Part shown: piece by piece, positions 33,675-46,162 of the stretch
Position numbering within the stretch: the stretch's first letter is position 1
Layout of the letters: the number at the start of each line of letters is the position of its first letter
DNA from: Candidatus Hermodarchaeota archaeon
GTDB taxonomy: Archaea > Asgardarchaeota > Hermodarchaeia > Hermodarchaeales > Hermodarchaeaceae
Reading direction: 5' to 3'
Assembly (NCBI GenBank): GCA_016839805.1
Contig: JAEOTO010000031.1
Coordinates: 168,322 to 232,321, forward strand
DNA length: 64,000 nt
Translations under genes and position numbers: made by a program
Notes under the pieces: model-generated
What the model saw: the letters and a program-made list of their open reading frames with translations, nothing else
The model's database searches: none
Told to the model about the DNA's origin: nothing

Positions 33675-34895
33675 ATGCGAAAATTGCGTCAAGGGTTGGT
33701 GGCAACATTTTTCTTTCTCCTAGCGCTACTTGCAGTGCTACCTCCCCAAACAGCGGCCTTTCAATACATCCATTACTGGCGGGTAAACTTTACCGGTTTT
33801 TTAGAAGTGTCTGGAAACCAATCACTTCCAATTCTGCCCTATTGGAATTACATTGGCAATCAATCCTGGCAAACATGTGAGCAAATTCATTTCGACATGA
33901 CTCATAACAATGATACTATCGAGCCCATTGAGATCGTAATCGACCTTGATGGAAACCCTCAGCTGGTTTTGAATCTTACAACACCCCTAGAACCGAATGA
34001 CACACTAACGTGGCACGATGAATGGTTAATCTCCGTGTCGAACCTACGACCGCGTCTGCCCCAGATTTACATTGATCAATCCGGAAACATCAGTGAAATC
34101 GAAGAACTAATGGAACCCGAGGAGTATGATCGTTACACACGTGGGACAACGTTATGGAAGACGTGGAACCAGTCTTTAGTAAACACATCACGAGACATTC
34201 GAAATAGCCTTCCCATTGAATTGCATAACAACACACTTGCACTTGTTCATGCTGCAATCCGATGGATTCAAACCAACATCCAGCGATCTATTGGATTATC
34301 CGAACCTCAATATCCAGAAGAAATCATAGTCAGTAAAATCGGAGACTGTGATGATCAATCCAATTTATTGATCACATTTTTACGAATTTTTAATATTCCG
34401 TGTTATCTAATGACAGGCCATTGGTTTCAAGAAGGAGCTAGTACTAATGGCTACCTCTGGGGATCAGTAGAAGAGAACGCCTTTTTCTATGTTAATTGGG
34501 AGAATGCAGTTGGTCATGGATGGGCGATGGTGTATGTTCCTCCATGGGGTTGGTTACCCTTTGATCTAACAGCAGCGGGTTATGGAGTTGACCCAGCTAA
34601 CACCTATTATGAATCGCTATATGCTTCGAGCTTACCATTTGTTACCTTGTGGCAGGTCGTTGTTACTGATTACATTCAAGAACGTCGAACAGAGAAACTT
34701 GATTTATTCACCTTTGAACTTCACCGTATTGAATACGAAGAATGGATTTCACTTGGTTCAATTCCAATCGCTGACTTTCAATACTTCTTGACTAATGTTG
34801 CCACCTTAGTTGCACTAATAGGCACTCTGGCTTTGTTCGGTTGTATTATTGGAATTGCCCTTCGGCGTCGAGGGAAGGAGGCACCTAAACAATGA
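33675..34895 (+). CDS. Membrane-anchored transglutaminase-like protein
   Basis: Signal peptide; GDCDD, GHGW, GWLPFDLT (Cys-His-Asp triad); C-terminal TM; ATGA overlap with bshC. Confidence 0.85.
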   Translation: MRKLRQGLVATFFFLLALLAVLPPQTAAFQYIHYWRVNFTGFLEVSGNQSLPILPYWNYIGNQSWQTCEQIHFDMTHNNDTIEPIEIVIDLDGNPQLVLNLTTPLEPNDTLTWHDEWLISVSNLRPRLPQIYIDQSGNISEIEELMEPEEYDRYTRGTTLWKTWNQSLVNTSRDIRNSLPIELHNNTLALVHAAIRWIQTNIQRSIGLSEPQYPEEIIVSKIGDCDDQSNLLITFLRIFNIPCYLMTGHWFQEGASTNGYLWGSVEENAFFYVNWENAVGHGWAMVYVPPWGWLPFDLTAAGYGVDPANTYYESLYASSLPFVTLWQVVVTDYIQERRTEKLDLFTFELHRIEYEEWISLGSIPIADFQYFLTNVATLVALIGTLALFGCIIGIALRRRGKEAPKQ

Positions 34896-36667
34896 TTTCC
34901 CGGGCTGCCCCTAACGAATTGTATTCTGAATACGTCTTTGATGGAAAAAAAACAGCGCTAGAATTCTGGGGGCATATCCCCCATAACATGAAAGAAGCTG
35001 TGACCCTTAGTAAATCCATAATCAAAGCGTATCGGGAAAAACACCAACCACTCTTCACACCTGAACGACTTAATGATTTACTCAAAGCCATTAAAACATT
35101 TCATCAAAAACACAAAGCCTTAACTCCAAACGCCAAGCAAAATCTTACCCTTCTTGAAGAGCAATATGGTGCAGTCGAAGCAGGTCACCAACCAGCCCTC
35201 TTAGGTGGTCCAGGATTCGTTATTAACAAACTTGCCGCCATTGCACGCTTAGCGGCGTTCCAACATACAGCACCCATCATGTTTGTGGGTGATCATGATC
35301 ACGAGCAAAAAGAATTGACAGTAATTCATCTACCAAGTCCAGGTCCCCGAGGACTTATCTTTACATACCGAGTACCACGCGAGTATCAACTATCACCCTT
35401 ACATGTACTTCCCCTCCCACCTCTTACCTGGTTGAAACAGGTAGTTGAAAAAATCACATCAACATATCATGAAATGGTTGCAGATTCTGGAAGGGAAAAG
35501 AAAGACATCTACGAAACCAGAATCCAACGTCTCCGTCAATTACTCGTAAACACGTATAATCAAGCCAACACGTTTTCTGAATGGACCGTGTTGATTTGGA
35601 TTCAAATCATCAACATGTCCCAAGATGTTGGGATTCTCTTTCAGGTGTTCTCAGACCCAAGGATTCGCGATCTAATGCTCCCTGCCTTTGAATATCTTTT
35701 AGCGTCCTCAAATCGCACTCAACTAATCCAAGCGCTAAATCAAAGTGCAACCAAGCTTGAAAACCTTGGTTATCAACCCGGAATAGGCATACGCACAGAG
35801 AATTATGTACCCTTCCATCTCGAATGTCTGACCCAAGGCTGTCATCGAACCCGTCTTGACCCACATCTTACTGATTATTCGACAAGCAGTACTATTGAAA
35901 TCTCAGCTAACTGTCCTAAGTGTAATACGATTCATACTCTAGAATTGAAAGCCAGTTCACCTGATCTTTCACCCTGGAAGGACTTTTTATCACCACGAGT
36001 AGATACTAGAGCCTTTCTCGTACAAAGCTATACACCTGTAATTCTTCATTGTGGTGGAGCCGGAGAAACAGATTACCACGCCCAGGTTTCACCTGCACTT
36101 AAGGCCATAAAGAGTATTGCACCCATTTTCTTCCGCTATACAAGGCTGTATTATGGAAACCCATGGACACACCGCCAAAGTCTGAAACTTTCCCAAGAAA
36201 ATCTAAGCCCGTTAGACCTTAGTGAACTTCAACGCTATTCCTCTGCAATCATCACAGGATATAAGGAAGAAAATGTGGGAGTCATCCAATCGTTATTTGC
36301 AGCAAGTAATGAACACATCACAAAAACGGCTACCCACCTGATTCAGGTTGAATCACAAATGGAGAAGAAACGAATGGACACAATTATTTTACAGCGCGAA
36401 GCGTCAGAACCAACTATCAAAAAAGAGCTCCAAACAGAAATTGGTGCACTAACCCGTAATCGCCAGTTAATACAAACCTATCTTTCGCAAATGTTTGGTC
36501 GCTATTCCCCTGAACGGCTTGGTCAAGAAGTGAGTTTTGCATGGATTGACTTTGCTTTATCCCTCAGCCCAGAGCACCTTTTCTCCAGACTTTTTACTCA
36601 CTACCAGCCACTTACGCCGTCAGCTGCAACTTTCTACTTACCTGAAAACCCAACTAAGCTTGAATAA
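34892..36667 (+). CDS. bshC: Bacillithiol cysteine-adding enzyme BshC-like
   Basis: AVEAGHQPALLGGP...NK, DHD, SPRVDTR..VQ, GGAGE.DY.AQ, C-terminal coiled coil; adjacent to bshA. Confidence 0.75.
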   Translation: MISRAAPNELYSEYVFDGKKTALEFWGHIPHNMKEAVTLSKSIIKAYREKHQPLFTPERLNDLLKAIKTFHQKHKALTPNAKQNLTLLEEQYGAVEAGHQPALLGGPGFVINKLAAIARLAAFQHTAPIMFVGDHDHEQKELTVIHLPSPGPRGLIFTYRVPREYQLSPLHVLPLPPLTWLKQVVEKITSTYHEMVADSGREKKDIYETRIQRLRQLLVNTYNQANTFSEWTVLIWIQIINMSQDVGILFQVFSDPRIRDLMLPAFEYLLASSNRTQLIQALNQSATKLENLGYQPGIGIRTENYVPFHLECLTQGCHRTRLDPHLTDYSTSSTIEISANCPKCNTIHTLELKASSPDLSPWKDFLSPRVDTRAFLVQSYTPVILHCGGAGETDYHAQVSPALKAIKSIAPIFFRYTRLYYGNPWTHRQSLKLSQENLSPLDLSELQRYSSAIITGYKEENVGVIQSLFAASNEHITKTATHLIQVESQMEKKRMDTIILQREASEPTIKKELQTEIGALTRNRQLIQTYLSQMFGRYSPERLGQEVSFAWIDFALSLSPEHLFSRLFTHYQPLTPSAATFYLPENPTKLE

Positions 36668-37760
36668 CTTTTTCATAAATCGCTTCGTATTGAGGTAAGA
36701 CTTTCTCAACCGTATGATGCTTAATGATATGTTGCCGAGCCTGTTTACCTAAGCGACCCGCAAGAGTGGAATCGGTTAGGATGGCATATAGCTTTTCAGC
36801 CATTGCATCAATATCACCAAAGGGTACGAGAAGCCCGTTTTCGCCATCTTCGATAATCTCAGGTATTCCCCCAACAGCTGTTGAAACGACAGGTAATCCA
36901 CAACTCATAGCCTCAAGAAGCGACAAGGGTGCACCTTCTAACTCAGAGCTTAGTGCAAAAGCATCGGCACATCGAAGATACTGATGGACATCTCGTTTGA
37001 ATCCAGGACATTGAATACGGTTATTCAATTCATATTTTCGGATTAACCGATCGACATCATGTCGGGTTGGACCATCTCCAAGCAAGAGCAAGTCGACATC
37101 AGGCACCTCGGAAGCAATTTGGGCAAAAGCTGTCACTAAATCGCTCACTCGTTTCACTGGACGAAAATTCGAGACGTGAATTAATTGTTGTTTCCCATTT
37201 CTCATCTGAAATTCACAGGCATTAGGTTTAAACAATTCAGTATCTGTGAAATTAGTAATAGGTTCAATTGAACAGCGAACTCCCAAGGTCTGTTCTGCAG
37301 TTTGACAGATATGGTTCGTGACACAAGTTACAGCATGCGCAGCCTCTACTGCAAACCGTGTGGCAGGTTGATAAGCTGGATCCGCACCCAGCGTATGAAC
37401 ATCAGAACCATGTAAGGTCACAACATAAGGAACTCCCGTCATTTGATTTGCCATAAACGCAGACAAGGCATGGGGAATAGCGTAATGCACATGCAAAATG
37501 TCCAGCTGATGCTTTTGAGCCACCTGAGCCATTCGAGAAGCAAGTGCAACCGTATAAGGGGGATATCGGAAAAGTGGATACTCCAGAACATCAACAAGAT
37601 CCACTTTGACATTTTCGTAGACCCCTTCTTGTAACTCAAATGGCACTTCGTAAGTAATAAAGCGCACTTCATGGTCGCGTTTTGCTAATTCAACGCCTAA
37701 ACGGGTGGCTAGAAGGCCTGAACCACCCACACCGGGATAACACGTGATGCCAATTCGCAT
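36654..37760 (-). CDS. bshA: N-acetyl-alpha-D-glucosaminyl L-malate synthase BshA
   Basis: MRIGITCYP..GGSG..AT.LG, YPLFRYPPY, HVHYAIPHA, TLHG.D, HVSNFRPVKR. Confidence 0.9.
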   Translation of the reverse strand: MRIGITCYPGVGGSGLLATRLGVELAKRDHEVRFITYEVPFELQEGVYENVKVDLVDVLEYPLFRYPPYTVALASRMAQVAQKHQLDILHVHYAIPHALSAFMANQMTGVPYVVTLHGSDVHTLGADPAYQPATRFAVEAAHAVTCVTNHICQTAEQTLGVRCSIEPITNFTDTELFKPNACEFQMRNGKQQLIHVSNFRPVKRVSDLVTAFAQIASEVPDVDLLLLGDGPTRHDVDRLIRKYELNNRIQCPGFKRDVHQYLRCADAFALSSELEGAPLSLLEAMSCGLPVVSTAVGGIPEIIEDGENGLLVPFGDIDAMAEKLYAILTDSTLAGRLGKQARQHIIKHHTVEKVLPQYEAIYEKVIQA

Positions 37761-37945
37761 CGTTAATCCCTTGGCATCCCGTCTTACCCGCCCTTATGTC
37801 TTCCGTTGTCCGAAACTTACCCAGACCTGTGCCAGAATGGTGTTCGGTTCCTGCATCATCGACGGGCACTGCCCCACCAGGGGGCTGTCACCTCCCACCT
37901 CACGACAGGCGTTTAGAGTCTCCGCCCAACTGTCGGCGACACCAA
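37761..37945 (-). ncRNA. Candidate structured leader / ncRNA upstream of bshA
   Basis: GC-rich non-coding stretch behind TTTTTATA box (37961-37968); closing stem UGGUGU/ACACCA, GCCCC/GGGGC hairpin, kink-turn-like GAGGUGGG...CCCGUC-GAU-GA. Confidence 0.5.
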
Positions 37946-38146
37946 TGTGTCCAAGAAGGATATAAAAACTCCACCTAATGAAACTCCCTTTCACGAAGAC
38001 AGTTAGATGGTAATACGGACTAGTTGTCAATAAATGGACCTAGAAAAACCACGAAATATCACCTATTAACACCAATTAAAATGAAATTTCGTGATTTTTC
38101 CTTCAGCAAGGAAAACTTTTGGTGCTAAAAGAGCTTACTTACGGAT

Positions 38147-38821
38147 ATGCCTCTTTCCGCTTCAAATCGATTACTAATTGTTGGAGCCCATCCAGACGAT
38201 GAAACCTTTGGTTGTGGAGGAACTATTGCTCTTGAAACTGTTCGAGGAACCAGCGTTACCGTTTGTTGTCTAACAGGAACACCTCAGCGCCATAAGGAGT
38301 TACGAGCTGCGTGTAAAATACTCGGTGCATCGGTAATTGCTTATAAGGGTACGGATTTGGAGCTCATTGTTTCTGACGTCACAAAGGTGCTTATCCCCAT
38401 CATCCAAGAGCTCAAACCTCAAGTGATTATCTCACACAGTGGCAATGATTATCATGATGACCACCGAGTTGTGTACCAGGCACTTTTCCGTTCAGCTGAA
38501 TGGGCAGGTCATGCAACACAATATAAAACAAAAGCATGGCGACCTCACCGCCTACTAAGCATGGAAATTAATACACTATTAGCCGCACCAACCTTACTTG
38601 TCGATGTATCCGATTACATTGATTTGAAAATGCGAGCAATCAATCGCTATCAAAGCCAATTGAAAAAAACCAAACAATACTATCATGAATTTAATTTACA
38701 AAAGGCAAAATTACGAGGACTTCAGGGTGGCTGTGAATATGCAGAAGCATTTCAGGAGGTCCTTATGCCCATTCATGGACCCTTCTATTCACCTTCTCCG
38801 ACAGTAAAAAGCATCTTTTAG
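38147..38821 (+). CDS. bshB: PIG-L family deacetylase (BshB-like)
   Basis: GAHPDDE..GCGGTI, H...DYHDDH, VDVSDY...K..AI..Y.SQ, RG...G.EYAEAF; divergent from bshA. Confidence 0.75.
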   Translation: MPLSASNRLLIVGAHPDDETFGCGGTIALETVRGTSVTVCCLTGTPQRHKELRAACKILGASVIAYKGTDLELIVSDVTKVLIPIIQELKPQVIISHSGNDYHDDHRVVYQALFRSAEWAGHATQYKTKAWRPHRLLSMEINTLLAAPTLLVDVSDYIDLKMRAINRYQSQLKKTKQYYHEFNLQKAKLRGLQGGCEYAEAFQEVLMPIHGPFYSPSPTVKSIF

Positions 38822-44596: not shown

Positions 44597-45193
44597 CTAC
44601 TTTCTTGCGAATATCCAGTAGTGGGTTTCGCCCCCGCGTTCAAGCACCTCATCGCGGATGATTTCAAAGCCGGCTTGTTTAACTAAAGCGAGTGATGTTT
44701 CTTTTCGGGGATGACTCCAGAACATGGGTGTTCCCATATAGTCCTCAATAGCTTCCCATGCGTCTGGACCAGTAGAGAAGAAGAGGATCCCTCCTGGTTT
44801 CAGAACTCGGTAAAAATTCTGGTAGATGGTTGCATGTTTCTCTTTTGGCACATGAATTATTGCGTAGGTGGATACGACGCCATCAAAGGAGTTAGCGGGG
44901 AATGTCAGTTGGGTCATATCGCCTTCCAAGAATTCGGCTCCAGGAACATGTTGACGGGCGAGGTTTATCATGCTCGTTGAAATATCAATGCCGGTGACAG
45001 AGTATCCACGGTCTACCAAAAACTTCCCGACAGGTACACCTGCTCCGCATCCGGCATCTAATATTCGAGCTCCCTTAGGGAGGAGCGAGATGAAAAACTC
45101 TAATTCCATTTCGTTCTTAAACTGGTCCCTTGATGCGTTATATTTTGCAGCAATTTTGTTGTAACCCTTTCTGACGATATCATCTTGTTTCAT
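44597..45193 (-). CDS. Class I SAM-dependent methyltransferase
   Basis: ILDAGCGAG, GIDIS, YAIIHVP, RVLKPGG. Confidence 0.9.
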   Translation of the reverse strand: MKQDDIVRKGYNKIAAKYNASRDQFKNEMELEFFISLLPKGARILDAGCGAGVPVGKFLVDRGYSVTGIDISTSMINLARQHVPGAEFLEGDMTQLTFPANSFDGVVSTYAIIHVPKEKHATIYQNFYRVLKPGGILFFSTGPDAWEAIEDYMGTPMFWSHPRKETSLALVKQAGFEIIRDEVLERGGETHYWIFARK

Positions 45194-45205
45194 GCAGAAC
45201 TCGCC

Positions 45206-46162
45206 TCAATCAGAAGCTAGCAGGAAATGGGTAATCATAATTCCAGCATATACTCCCGTGCCAACTGCCGTAGCAACTGTTTGGGTCATAGGTCGAACAT
45301 CGCCTGCAACCCAAACGCCTTCAACATTTGTGCCACCTTGATTATCTGTAATAATGTTTCCTTGATCATCGACTTCAATTCCTAGTTGGACTGCTAGCTC
45401 ACTGCGTGGGATGCCGATCCATGCAACAAAGAAGGTATTGCATTCGAGGGTTTGTCCATCCGCGGTTAGAAGTTGTTGCCTTTTGCCAGGTTCTAATATC
45501 TTGATTTCTTTGATAAGACCGTGCGTCCATTCAAATCCAGATTGTTTCAGAATGGTTTCTGATTCTTTCGTAAAGGGAGCGTAACTGTCTTCAGTCATGA
45601 AGATATGAATTCTCTTAGCAAAGGGTTTGATACACCGTGCGACATGCAGGGCACTTTTCACGGTTCCCGCATTGACAATGACGACATCCCTTCCTGCGAC
45701 TTGTGGGCTATCACAATCCGGACAATAATAGCTCATGTGATTTTTTGCAGCATACGGTAACCATTTTTTCCAGTCACCATTGACCTTAGGATGTTTGCGA
45801 GAAATCCCTGTTGCTAAGACCAAGGTTTTTGCAGTGAAAAAAGTAGGTGTCGGTTTCCTAGATTTTACATGAACCTGGAAGTTAGGAGTCTGTCCTTCTA
45901 GTTTGATTACATTTCCAAAGAGGGTCTCTACATTAAATTCGCGGAGTTCTTTTCGCATTTTCCGAAGTATCTTGTTGGGGGCAGTGAGGGGTTTGATTCC
46001 TGGATAATTATGAACAGGCGTATTAGCAAATTGCATTGGAGATGTTTTCCGGTCAATGACTAAGACTCTCAGTCGGTGGAATCCGAGATGCATTGCTGTG
46101 GCGATTCCTGCGGGTCCGCCTCCAACAACGACGGTATCATAGTGGGTTGATTTGTTCTTCAT
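45206..46162 (-). CDS. Thioredoxin-reductase-like FAD/NAD(P) oxidoreductase
   Basis: VVGGGPAG, LATG, CPDCD, TNVEGVW.AGD. Confidence 0.85.
   Translation of the reverse strand: MKNKSTHYDTVVVGGGPAGIATAMHLGFHRLRVLVIDRKTSPMQFANTPVHNYPGIKPLTAPNKILRKMRKELREFNVETLFGNVIKLEGQTPNFQVHVKSRKPTPTFFTAKTLVLATGISRKHPKVNGDWKKWLPYAAKNHMSYYCPDCDSPQVAGRDVVIVNAGTVKSALHVARCIKPFAKRIHIFMTEDSYAPFTKESETILKQSGFEWTHGLIKEIKILEPGKRQQLLTADGQTLECNTFFVAWIGIPRSELAVQLGIEVDDQGNIITDNQGGTNVEGVWVAGDVRPMTQTVATAVGTGVYAGIMITHFLLASD

Follow-up and report, generated by a model that had tools for sequence, protein, structure and literature searches.

A probable bacillithiol-type thiol biosynthesis cluster with an archaeal-type BshC in Hermodarchaeia

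[quoted passage not shown] Bacillithiol itself (Cys-GlcN-malate) is the likeliest candidate (probability about 0.7). From the gene identities, fold, motifs, clustering and co-distribution described below, we infer the catalytic steps, substrates and product as follows. With UDP-GlcNAc as the donor, BshA would add GlcNAc to L-malate; the acetyl group would next be stripped off by the PIG-L zinc hydrolase, and the archaeal-type BshC would attach cysteine to the freed amine. The shared divergent spacer may drive both bshA and bshB, while bshC may be read together with the transglutaminase-like gene upstream. The thiol would probably be used by the DinB-type S-transferases of this genome, and probably recycled via something other than the bacterial Bdr/Brx system. 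The inference of the first-pass annotation, that this lineage makes bacillithiol or a variant of it, is favoured by the equivalog-level BshA, the intact deacetylase motif, the BshC fold and the co-occurrence of the three genes.

Table 1. Features of the bsh locus (positions in the window).
Feature	Position	Strand	Description	Basis
Transglutaminase-like surface protein gene	33675-34895	+	406 aa	PF01841, 42 bits
bshC-like (archaeal-type)	34892-36667	+	591 aa; putative cysteine-adding enzyme	PF10079, AF2 fold, family tree
Zinc-ribbon-like insert within bshC	35825-35923	+	residues 312-344, E-C-x4-C ... C-x2-C	
bshA	36654-37760	-	368 aa; GT4 N-acetylglucosaminyl-L-malate synthase	TIGR03999
bshA/bshB divergent intergenic region	37761-38146	.	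386-bp spacer	
bshB-like PIG-L/LmbE zinc deacetylase	38147-38821	+	224 aa	BshB1 model, PF02585

The first-pass annotation had described a bshC/bshA/bshB cluster, and its three open reading frames were confirmed without any shift in coordinates (Table 1). The bshA and bshC genes are convergent and their 3' ends share 14 bp, while the deacetylase gene is divergent from bshA. In several relatives a nitroreductase-like ORF separates bshC and bshA, which is not the case in this window. The host genome is a Hermodarchaeia MAG that is 86.7% complete and in which no 16S gene was found; the closest relatives are named Candidatus Hermodarchaeum/Hermodarchaeota MAGs. Rfam and tRNA scans of the window gave no match.

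The claimed identity of BshA was borne out by profile search. The protein scored 398.2 bits (E 3e-119) against TIGR03999 over profile positions 1-374 of 375, well above the NCBI equivalog cut-off of 273.7 bits, whereas the runner-up family reached 157 bits and the MshA model merely 64.8 bits. Both GT4 domains (PF13439 and PF00534) were found, and the structures of Bacillus anthracis BshA (2jjm, 3mbo) matched over the full length (phmmer, E 3e-93). The window BshA matched Bacillus BshA with 315.6 bits (phmmer) and a Thor-type Asgard BshA with 323 bits at 43% identity (BLASTP). Hermod BshA is nearer to the BshA of Bathyarchaeia (54%) than to that of other Asgard archaea (35-43%). BshA is a bona fide equivalog, with predicted use of malate and UDP-GlcNAc.

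The deacetylase had been described as a PIG-L protein, and this is supported by its PF02585 score (74 bits) and intact HxDD+H zinc motif. Its best NCBIfam match was BshB1 (TIGR04001; 95.3 bits, E 4e-27), which is under the curated cut-off of 182.5 bits; the MshB model gave 35.7 bits. The best PDB sequence match was the BshB1 structure 6p2t (E 4e-15), and the archaeal diacetylchitobiose deacetylase was matched as well (E 2e-12). In BC1534 of the BshB1/LmbE superfamily, the metal-binding and general-base residues are His12-Asp14-Asp15, His110 and His113 (PMC4101496), and these align with H15-P-D17-D18, H103 and H106 of the Hermod protein. Arg53 and Arg109 of BC1534 are contacts for GlcNAc-Mal that were predicted by docking only (PMC4101496). 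The equivalent of Arg53 is kept as Arg48, whereas the position of Arg109 is occupied by Tyr102, and a Tyr was found at this position in all BshA-linked archaeal deacetylases examined. The retained metal and catalytic motif of the deacetylase, together with a BshA above its equivalog cut-off, argues for a bacillithiol-type pathway.

The proposed match of the third gene to BshC holds at the level of family and fold, but not at the equivalog level. The protein exceeded the gathering score of PF10079 (61.2 bits vs 27), but reached only 64.6 bits (E 8e-18) against TIGR03998, for which the NCBI equivalog cut-off is 265.8 bits and six canonical BshC representatives scored 376-593 bits. The AF2 model (pLDDT 95.1, pTM 0.93) had as its best PDB match 4wbd, the BshC of B. 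subtilis (Foldseek E 1.7e-20, TM 0.66/0.72). With VIA, the two were aligned over 481 residues (model 5-585, chain 12-539; Z 34.3, rmsd 3.6 Å), and the overall fold matches, including the C-terminal long-helix domain, at an identity of 14-16% in structure-based alignments. The next-best structural match was class I lysyl-tRNA synthetase (1irx; Z 20.4, 302 residues), which outranked other class I synthetases (Z ~11-12). Only the catalytic Rossmann part is matched (13% identity), and an anticodon-binding domain was not recognised in the BshC-like protein. Nine residues (Q100, K113, P128, D136, F308, R321, G389, Y395 and P411) were at least 80% conserved both in the archaeal-type set and in a set of weaker hits that includes canonical BshC. 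The full-length BshC fold and the residues in common with canonical BshC are further arguments for the bacillithiol reading.

In the family tree, the BshC-like protein falls in a distinct archaeal-type clade (SH-aLRT 98), and a long branch with full support lies between this clade and canonical BshC. Hermod BshC forms a long branch of its own, with at most 34% identity to any other family. Hence, the divergence noted at first pass is real, but it is not peculiar to this genome. Since it is a property of a large archaeal-type clade, the two explanations that had been offered for it, long residence and a different product, cannot be told apart here.

A further feature of the archaeal-type clade is its Cys-rich insert. 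Among 34 archaeal-type sequences, C312 and C341 never vary and C344 is conserved to at least 90%; the same positions are unconserved in 39 weaker hits, canonical BshC among them. As judged by eye, 19 of 28 representatives also carry the second Cys of the first knuckle, and most of the remainder have Asp there. The conserved cysteines resemble a zinc ribbon and may bind a metal. In CysRS and MshC, zinc helps to select or activate cysteine. Archaeal-type BshC could then be a self-sufficient cysteine ligase, with the metal site perhaps selecting or activating cysteine, a speculative idea suggested by the conserved three-Cys (plus Cys or Asp) site and by class I LysRS as the nearest structural kin outside BshC, and one that we regard as doubtful. 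If true, the archaeal-type clade would offer a tractable route to the unexplained reaction of BshC, and an old archaeal history of glucosamine-cysteine thiols would be indicated.

BshC is said to have been originally identified by phyletic co-occurrence and co-localisation with bshA. Our co-distribution survey covered 400 Asgard genomes grouped by family (f numbers). Of these, 146 had a BshA above its cut-off, all of them in f1, f6-f9, f12 and f31-33, while f24 had one weaker match (E 4e-65). These families also contain BshB-like orthologues (E<1e-28) and archaeal-type BshC, with the exception of f12, where a canonical BshC (376-386 bits) lies ~700 bp from bshA. BshA and some form of BshC thus coincide in all of these cut-off families and are usually adjacent. 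The arrangement is bshA-><-bshC in Hermodarchaeia, f7 and Bathyarchaeia, and bshB<->bshA->bshC in f31; the trio co-occurs and clusters in several Asgard families and in Bathyarchaeia. Tight co-distribution at the family level, combined with adjacency in differing arrangements, is consistent with a common pathway of the bacillithiol type. BshA is not the sole partner of the archaeal-type BshC clade: f10, f11, f19 and f21 have such a BshC but no BshA, and in f20 it is accompanied by a GT2.

In part, the genomic context of thiol supply and use points in the same direction. Precursor supply looks adequate, since two GlmS genes were found in the genome, and class I fumarase and malic enzyme are present in 15/19 and 17/19 Hermod genomes, respectively. 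The genome contains at least five intact DinB-superfamily ORFs, DinB_2 follows the BshC family in its distribution across families, and no GCS2-type gamma-glutamylcysteine ligase was found. Malate dehydrogenase of the LDH-family or Ldh_2 type was not found in this genome, and the LDH-family type occurred in 0/19 Hermod genomes. The first-pass annotation had proposed a search for YpdA and bacilliredoxins, which yielded none in the 86.7%-complete genome: the best match to the YpdA (Bdr) model had 64 bits vs a cut-off of 339.9, and TIGR04019 and TIGR04191, searched for BrxA/B and BrxC (YtxJ), were without matches. A TrxR-like gene at 45206-46162 was considered for the role of dedicated disulfide reductase and rejected: its CxxC motif (CPDC) is ordinary, the YpdA model gave 43 bits, and its identity to the TrxR-like gene next to the f20 operon is only 26%. 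A SAM methyltransferase at 44597-45193, considered as NmbA, had no specific family match.

Several of these results count against bacillithiol as the product, and might be explained by a related but different glucosamine-based thiol, in which the aglycone is a different hydroxy-acid or a polyol, or in which the divergent BshC adds an amino acid other than cysteine. The BshB-like and BshC-like proteins are far under their NCBI equivalog cut-offs, the docking-predicted Arg109 contact is a Tyr in every BshA-linked archaeal deacetylase examined, and LDH-type malate dehydrogenase was not found. In addition, archaeal-type BshC sits on a long branch with an extra Cys-rich insert, and f20 pairs the same clade with a GT2, so the module has been re-used with other first steps. 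The lack of matches to YpdA/Bdr, BrxA/B and YtxJ and the occurrence of archaeal-type BshC without BshA also weigh against the bacillithiol reading, as do two points from the literature: no archaeon has yet been shown to contain bacillithiol (PMC7278568), and in vitro reconstitution is lacking even for canonical BshC (PMC5790435). Yet, we consider a different thiol unlikely. BshA, the enzyme that chooses the aglycone, exceeds the malate-synthase equivalog cut-off by 124 bits and closely resembles the Bacillus enzymes that have been characterised, fumarase or malic enzyme can supply malate, and the combination of BshA with canonical BshC in f12 suggests that the two BshC types are interchangeable.

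Two other explanations are much less probable. Since PIG-L and GT4 families are common in glycoconjugate pathways, such as those of GPI-type anchors, the cluster might have a cell-surface role, perhaps in connection with the glycosylated surface protein encoded next to it; the gene for this heavily sequon-rich protein and bshC are apparently co-transcribed, and the deacetylase matches the diacetylchitobiose enzyme. However, BshA is specific at the equivalog level and not a generic GT4, a glycoconjugate role would leave the three-way co-distribution with a BshC-fold protein without function, and the proximity of the transglutaminase-like gene carries no information, since synteny in this one family extends over the entire region and tblastn did not find the gene in the 1.5-kb flanks of the f31 loci. 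We therefore regard a glycoconjugate role as very improbable. The remaining explanation, that the cluster is mis-binned bacterial DNA or was transferred very recently from bacteria, has in its favour that BshA is roughly equally similar to its Bacillus and Thor-type Asgard counterparts. It is hardly credible, as the contig is 232 kb long, the GC content of the three genes (0.43-0.45) equals that of the window (0.44), the flanking genes are of archaeal types (e.g., PRK04286 and the PDCD5-like PRK04239), and BshC is archaeal-type, not bacterial-type. Mis-binning in particular was rejected because of this native GC and a 13-kb gene order that recurs in ~15 independently assembled Hermodarchaeota MAGs, with protein identities of 55-90%.

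Compared to the bacillithiol system of Bacillus subtilis, B. anthracis and Staphylococcus aureus (BshA-BshB1/B2-BshC), the Hermod cluster contains representatives of all three enzyme families, and the logical order of the steps is the same. As in Bacillus, bshA and bshB are neighbours; bshC is unlinked to bshA in Bacillus, but adjacent to it here. Canonical BshC lacks the zinc-ribbon-like cysteines of the insert and belongs to a separate clade, and no counterpart of the bacterial Bdr (YpdA), BrxA/B and BrxC was found in this host, an Asgard archaeon. Archaeal-type BshC, Tyr-type deacetylase and equivalog-level BshA are common to Hermodarchaeia, the clusters of other Asgard archaea (titled Thorarchaeota) and those of Bathyarchaeia, and the convergent, overlapping bshA/bshC layout recurs in Bathyarchaeia CP070784.1. 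The f20 operon likewise combines an archaeal-type BshC with a PIG-L deacetylase, but its first enzyme is an unrelated GT2 with no BshA, its deacetylase has Trp at the Arg109 position, and TrxR-like and Amidohydro_2 genes lie alongside; its product probably differs. The mycothiol pathway of Actinobacteria (MshA-MshB-MshC-MshD) follows a similar logic, with a GT4, an LmbE deacetylase and a class-I-aaRS-like cysteine ligase. However, MshC is a CysRS paralogue, unlike BshC, and an MshD-type acetyltransferase is absent from the Hermod cluster.

Bacillithiol, a sugar-cysteine antioxidant for which measurements exist only from bacteria, is regarded as a bacterial thiol, and the first-pass annotation had presented the cluster as unexpected for archaea. 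This framing is outdated: a review from 2020 lists InterPro matches to 39 archaeal BshA and 39 BshC, mostly from Asgard archaea (Rawat & Maupin-Furlow; PMC7278568, section 13), and the NCBI annotation already names these proteins BshA and BshC. The novelty is modest and lies mainly in the archaeal-type BshC; specialists aware of the review will not be surprised, and the window contributes only the Hermodarchaeia instance of archaeal bsh clusters. Nevertheless, equivalog BshA in 146 of 400 Asgard genomes and in Bathyarchaeia indicates that a redox buffer of the sugar-cysteine kind may operate in many sediment archaea, some of them relatives of the eukaryotic ancestor, and this bears on archaeal tolerance of oxygen, metals and electrophiles. 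Moreover, the reaction of BshC is a long-standing open problem, as no in vitro reconstitution of the enzyme has been achieved, and biochemists could turn to proteins of this second, very divergent clade, with its probable metal site, for an independent attempt.

The transglutaminase-like gene upstream of bshC is an extra feature of Hermodarchaeia relative to other archaeal bsh clusters. Its stop codon overlaps the bshC start (ATGA), and the two genes are probably co-transcribed, to judge from the sequence. Inspection by eye shows a signal/TM segment at the N-terminus of the protein, a TM anchor at its C-terminus and many N-x-S/T sequons. The gene lies immediately upstream of bshC in every Hermod locus extending that far, and tblastn of the 1.5-kb flanks of the f31 loci did not find it. 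It was rejected as a functional partner of BshC, since conservation in this single family extends equally over the whole 13-kb neighbourhood and the protein seems to be extracellular.

The spacer between bshA and bshB is ~116 bp in relatives. In the window it contains a 274-bp insertion at 37808-38081 that is absent from these relatives, and the segment 37803-37945 has three more copies elsewhere in the same genome (C42, C22 and C10) with 78-82% identity.

We infer every catalytic step of a bacillithiol pathway from the bsh genes of the window: BshA would produce GlcNAc-malate, the deacetylase would convert it to GlcN-malate, and an archaeal-type BshC would add cysteine to yield bacillithiol. 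We assign this reading a probability of about 0.7. The first-pass annotation had proposed bacillithiol or a variant, which is favoured by a BshA above its family cut-off, the BshC fold, the clustering of the genes and their co-distribution; it had also placed the three open reading frames exactly. In vitro reconstitution of even canonical (bacterial-type) BshC has never been achieved (PMC5790435).

Features of the bsh locus and its surroundings (window positions)
Feature	Position	Strand	Length	Arrangement
Transglutaminase-like gene	33675-34895	+	406 aa	ends within the bshC start codon (ATGA)
BshC-like gene	34892-36667	+	591 aa	
bshA	36654-37760	-	368 aa	convergent with bshC, 14-bp overlap of 3' ends
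Core repeat of spacer insertion	37803-37945			
Spacer insertion	37808-38081		274 bp	between bshA and bshB
PIG-L deacetylase gene (bshB)	38147-38821	+	224 aa	divergent from bshA, 386-bp spacer
TrxR-like flavoprotein gene	within 44597-46162	-		6 kb from bshB

The identity of BshA was borne out by the family profile search, with 398.2 bits on TIGR03999 (cut-off 273.7), 157 bits for the runner-up family and 64.8 bits for MshA. Over its whole length the protein aligns with the BshA structures of B. anthracis (E 3e-93) and B. subtilis (E 9e-87). For the proposed BshB, BshB1 is indeed the best-matching family, but its 95.3 bits fall short of the cut-off of 182.5. The closest solved relatives are BshB1 (6p2t, E 4e-15) and the deacetylase BC1534 (2ixd), and archaeal diacetylchitobiose deacetylase is only a little weaker as a match. 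The HxDD+H superfamily motif is intact (H15, D17, D18, H103, H106), and the equivalent of Arg53 is retained as Arg48. Tyr102 occupies the position of BC1534 Arg109, a GlcNAc-malate contact proposed from docking (PMC4101496); Tyr is also found there in the examined BshA-linked deacetylases of three other archaeal groups.

The BshC-like protein passes Pfam PF10079 (61.2 bits; gathering score 27) and shares the fold of B. subtilis BshC (4wbd), as its first-pass name implied, but it misses NCBI's TIGR03998 equivalog cut-off (64.6 vs 265.8 bits). Among 1.84 billion representatives, only 41 clusters matched at E<1e-30, followed by a gap and then by canonical BshC at E 1e-7 to 1e-3, six of which score 376-593 bits on TIGR03998. 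A tree of 66 sequences resolved three clades: the canonical one (SH-aLRT 100), the archaeal-type one (98) and a further, uncharacterised one (100). Within the archaeal-type clade the Hermod BshC sequences form a separate long branch. Canonical and archaeal-type proteins have Q100, K113, D136, F308, R321, G389 and Y395 in common. The archaeal type has extra cysteines, with C312 and C341 invariant and C344 nearly so, while the second cysteine of the first knuckle occurs in 19 of 28 archaeal-type representatives, with Asp in its place in most of the others. Judged from sequence, this layout, absent from canonical BshC, resembles a zinc ribbon. An AlphaFold model built on an alignment of 34 sequences was confident (pLDDT 95.1, pTM 0.93). 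Its top PDB match was 4wbd (Foldseek E 1.7e-20; VIA: Z 34.3, rmsd 3.6 A, 481 residues across the whole chain), with class I LysRS next (Z 20.4) and other class I synthetases at ~11-12. Hence, fold and motifs place the protein in the BshC superfamily, although it lies outside NCBI's equivalog.

The altered deacetylase pocket and the divergence of BshC both speak for a variant thiol as the product, which we regard as less probable than bacillithiol but as a serious alternative. A glycoconjugate role of the bsh genes is unlikely. Mis-binning is likewise unlikely, and contamination or a very recent transfer is excluded, because the genes have the same GC as the window and a gene order of ~13 kb is kept in ~15 Hermodarchaeum/Hermodarchaeota MAGs at 55-90% protein identity. 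In sequence, its genes encode an M28 peptidase, a PDCD5-like protein, an E2F/DP-type winged-helix protein, the transglutaminase-like protein, BshC, BshA, BshB, an MBL-fold protein and a bactofilin. The closest loci among named genomes are those of Candidatus Hermodarchaeum yapensis and Candidatus Hermodarchaeota MAGs; other homologues are labelled, for example, Promethearchaeota, Thorarchaeota or Hodarchaeota archaeon.

Several details of the locus are noteworthy. Features of the transglutaminase-like protein include a signal/TM segment, a TM anchor at the C-terminus and numerous N-glycosylation sequons; by eye, its Cys-His-Asp core looks intact. Since the stop of its gene overlaps the bshC start, one transcript seems to encode both this surface enzyme and a cytoplasmic protein of the thiol pathway. 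The bshA-bshB spacer measures ~116 bp in relatives and is longer in the window owing to the insertion, of which ~100-148 bp recur at three further sites in the genome (contigs C42, C22 and C10; 78-82% identity). These copies suggest a small mobile or repeated element within the divergent promoter region. In many Hermod relatives, bshC and bshA are separated by an additional ORF of ~175 aa (L041:7750-8335; equivalent gaps in loci L042, L045, L046, L048-L050, L052 and L054), which by eye resembles the nitroreductase family; the window lacks this ORF, and its bshC and bshA overlap instead. In two Hermod MAGs bshC is in two pieces (G105:C27:7066-8939; L054:5986-7865), one with an in-frame TAG, which could reflect assembly error or gene decay. 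The TrxR-like flavoprotein has the redox motif CPDC and, at 130 bits, stays under the TrxR cut-off; the next gene encodes a class I SAM methyltransferase, and no specific tie between this pair and the bsh genes was found.

Archaeal bsh genes have been noticed before. Rawat and Maupin-Furlow (2020, section 13) listed 39 archaeal InterPro matches to BshA and another 39 to BshC, most of them from Asgard archaea, and proposed bacillithiol in archaea as possible, noting it as undetected (PMC7278568). NCBI annotation already gives these proteins bsh names. A 2025 RefSeq survey found no archaeal bacillithiol pathway (PMC12719100). Presumably it missed these proteins, possibly because RefSeq holds few MAGs and because the survey's BLAST thresholds would probably leave out the divergent BshC. 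The window adds a Hermodarchaeia instance of the cluster and its layout; also new here are the argument drawn from BshA-BshC pairing in family f12, the co-distribution with DinB and the check on malate supply.

The window's genome (a MAG of 2.31 Mb in 50 contigs, 86.7% complete) has two GlmS genes, class I fumarase and malic enzyme; an LDH-family or Ldh_2 malate dehydrogenase was not found in it. Across 19 Hermodarchaeia genomes (G000, G093-G110), LDH/MDH-family malate dehydrogenase was found in none, despite class I fumarase in 15 and malic enzyme in 17, which is an unusual gap in Hermodarchaeia C4 metabolism. Searches of the window's genome found no GCS2-type ligase, no CoA-disulfide reductase over cut-off and no YpdA/Bdr, BrxA/B or YtxJ.

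Bacillithiol and mycothiol S-transferases are members of the DinB superfamily, of which the window's genome encodes at least five intact ORFs. Among 400 Asgard genomes, DinB_2 follows BshC closely by family (f1, the Hermod family, 16/18; f7 30/31; f9 12/12; f10 21/22; f11 2/2; f31-33 72/89) and was absent from f13-f18 and f21-f30. In f20 (135 genomes, 19 BshC-positive), 7 of 10 DinB_2-positive genomes also have BshC. This co-distribution is suggestive only, as related genomes are not independent.

In the same scan, BshA exceeded its cut-off in 146 genomes (f1 15/18, f7 30/31, f9 12/12, f12 11/12, f31-33 78/89; also f6 and f8), with a single weaker match in f24. BshB-like orthologues (E<1e-28) and archaeal-type BshC occur in the BshA families minus f12, where a canonical BshC (376-386 bits) lies ~700 bp from bshA in 5/5 genomes tested. 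BshA is thus paired with either one BshC type or the other, which argues that the archaeal type performs the same job. The f12 BshC adjoins the phylum's top-scoring BshA (up to 423 bits; L068-L070), and its position inside the canonical clade suggests that f12 gained a bacterial-type cluster separately. The bsh genes are adjacent in varying layouts, with bshB and bshA divergent and bshC downstream of bshA in f31, and bshA and bshC convergent in Hermodarchaeia and f7. The convergent pair also occurs in a complete Bathyarchaeia genome, with PIG-L and DinB genes nearby and a BshC-like protein 32% identical to the window's.

As a caveat on co-distribution, f10, f11, f19, f20 and f21 hold members of the archaeal-type BshC clade without BshA. 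An f20 locus (L071, G204:C1:91000-106000) has a GT2 - PIG-L - BshC-like operon, accompanied by an Amidohydro_2 gene and a divergently oriented gene for a TrxR-like oxidoreductase; the 400-genome scan found BshA in no f20 genome, and the product is probably a different glucosamine-cysteine compound. In f10, 20 of 22 genomes carry the archaeal-type BshC-like gene, and DinB_2 genes are abundant. At one f10 locus (L072, G067:C1:1502000-1516000), the gene lies beside those for a protein of 1167 aa that belongs to no known family, a class I/II aminotransferase and ArgRS; at an f31 locus (L074), bshC is likewise followed by an aminotransferase gene.
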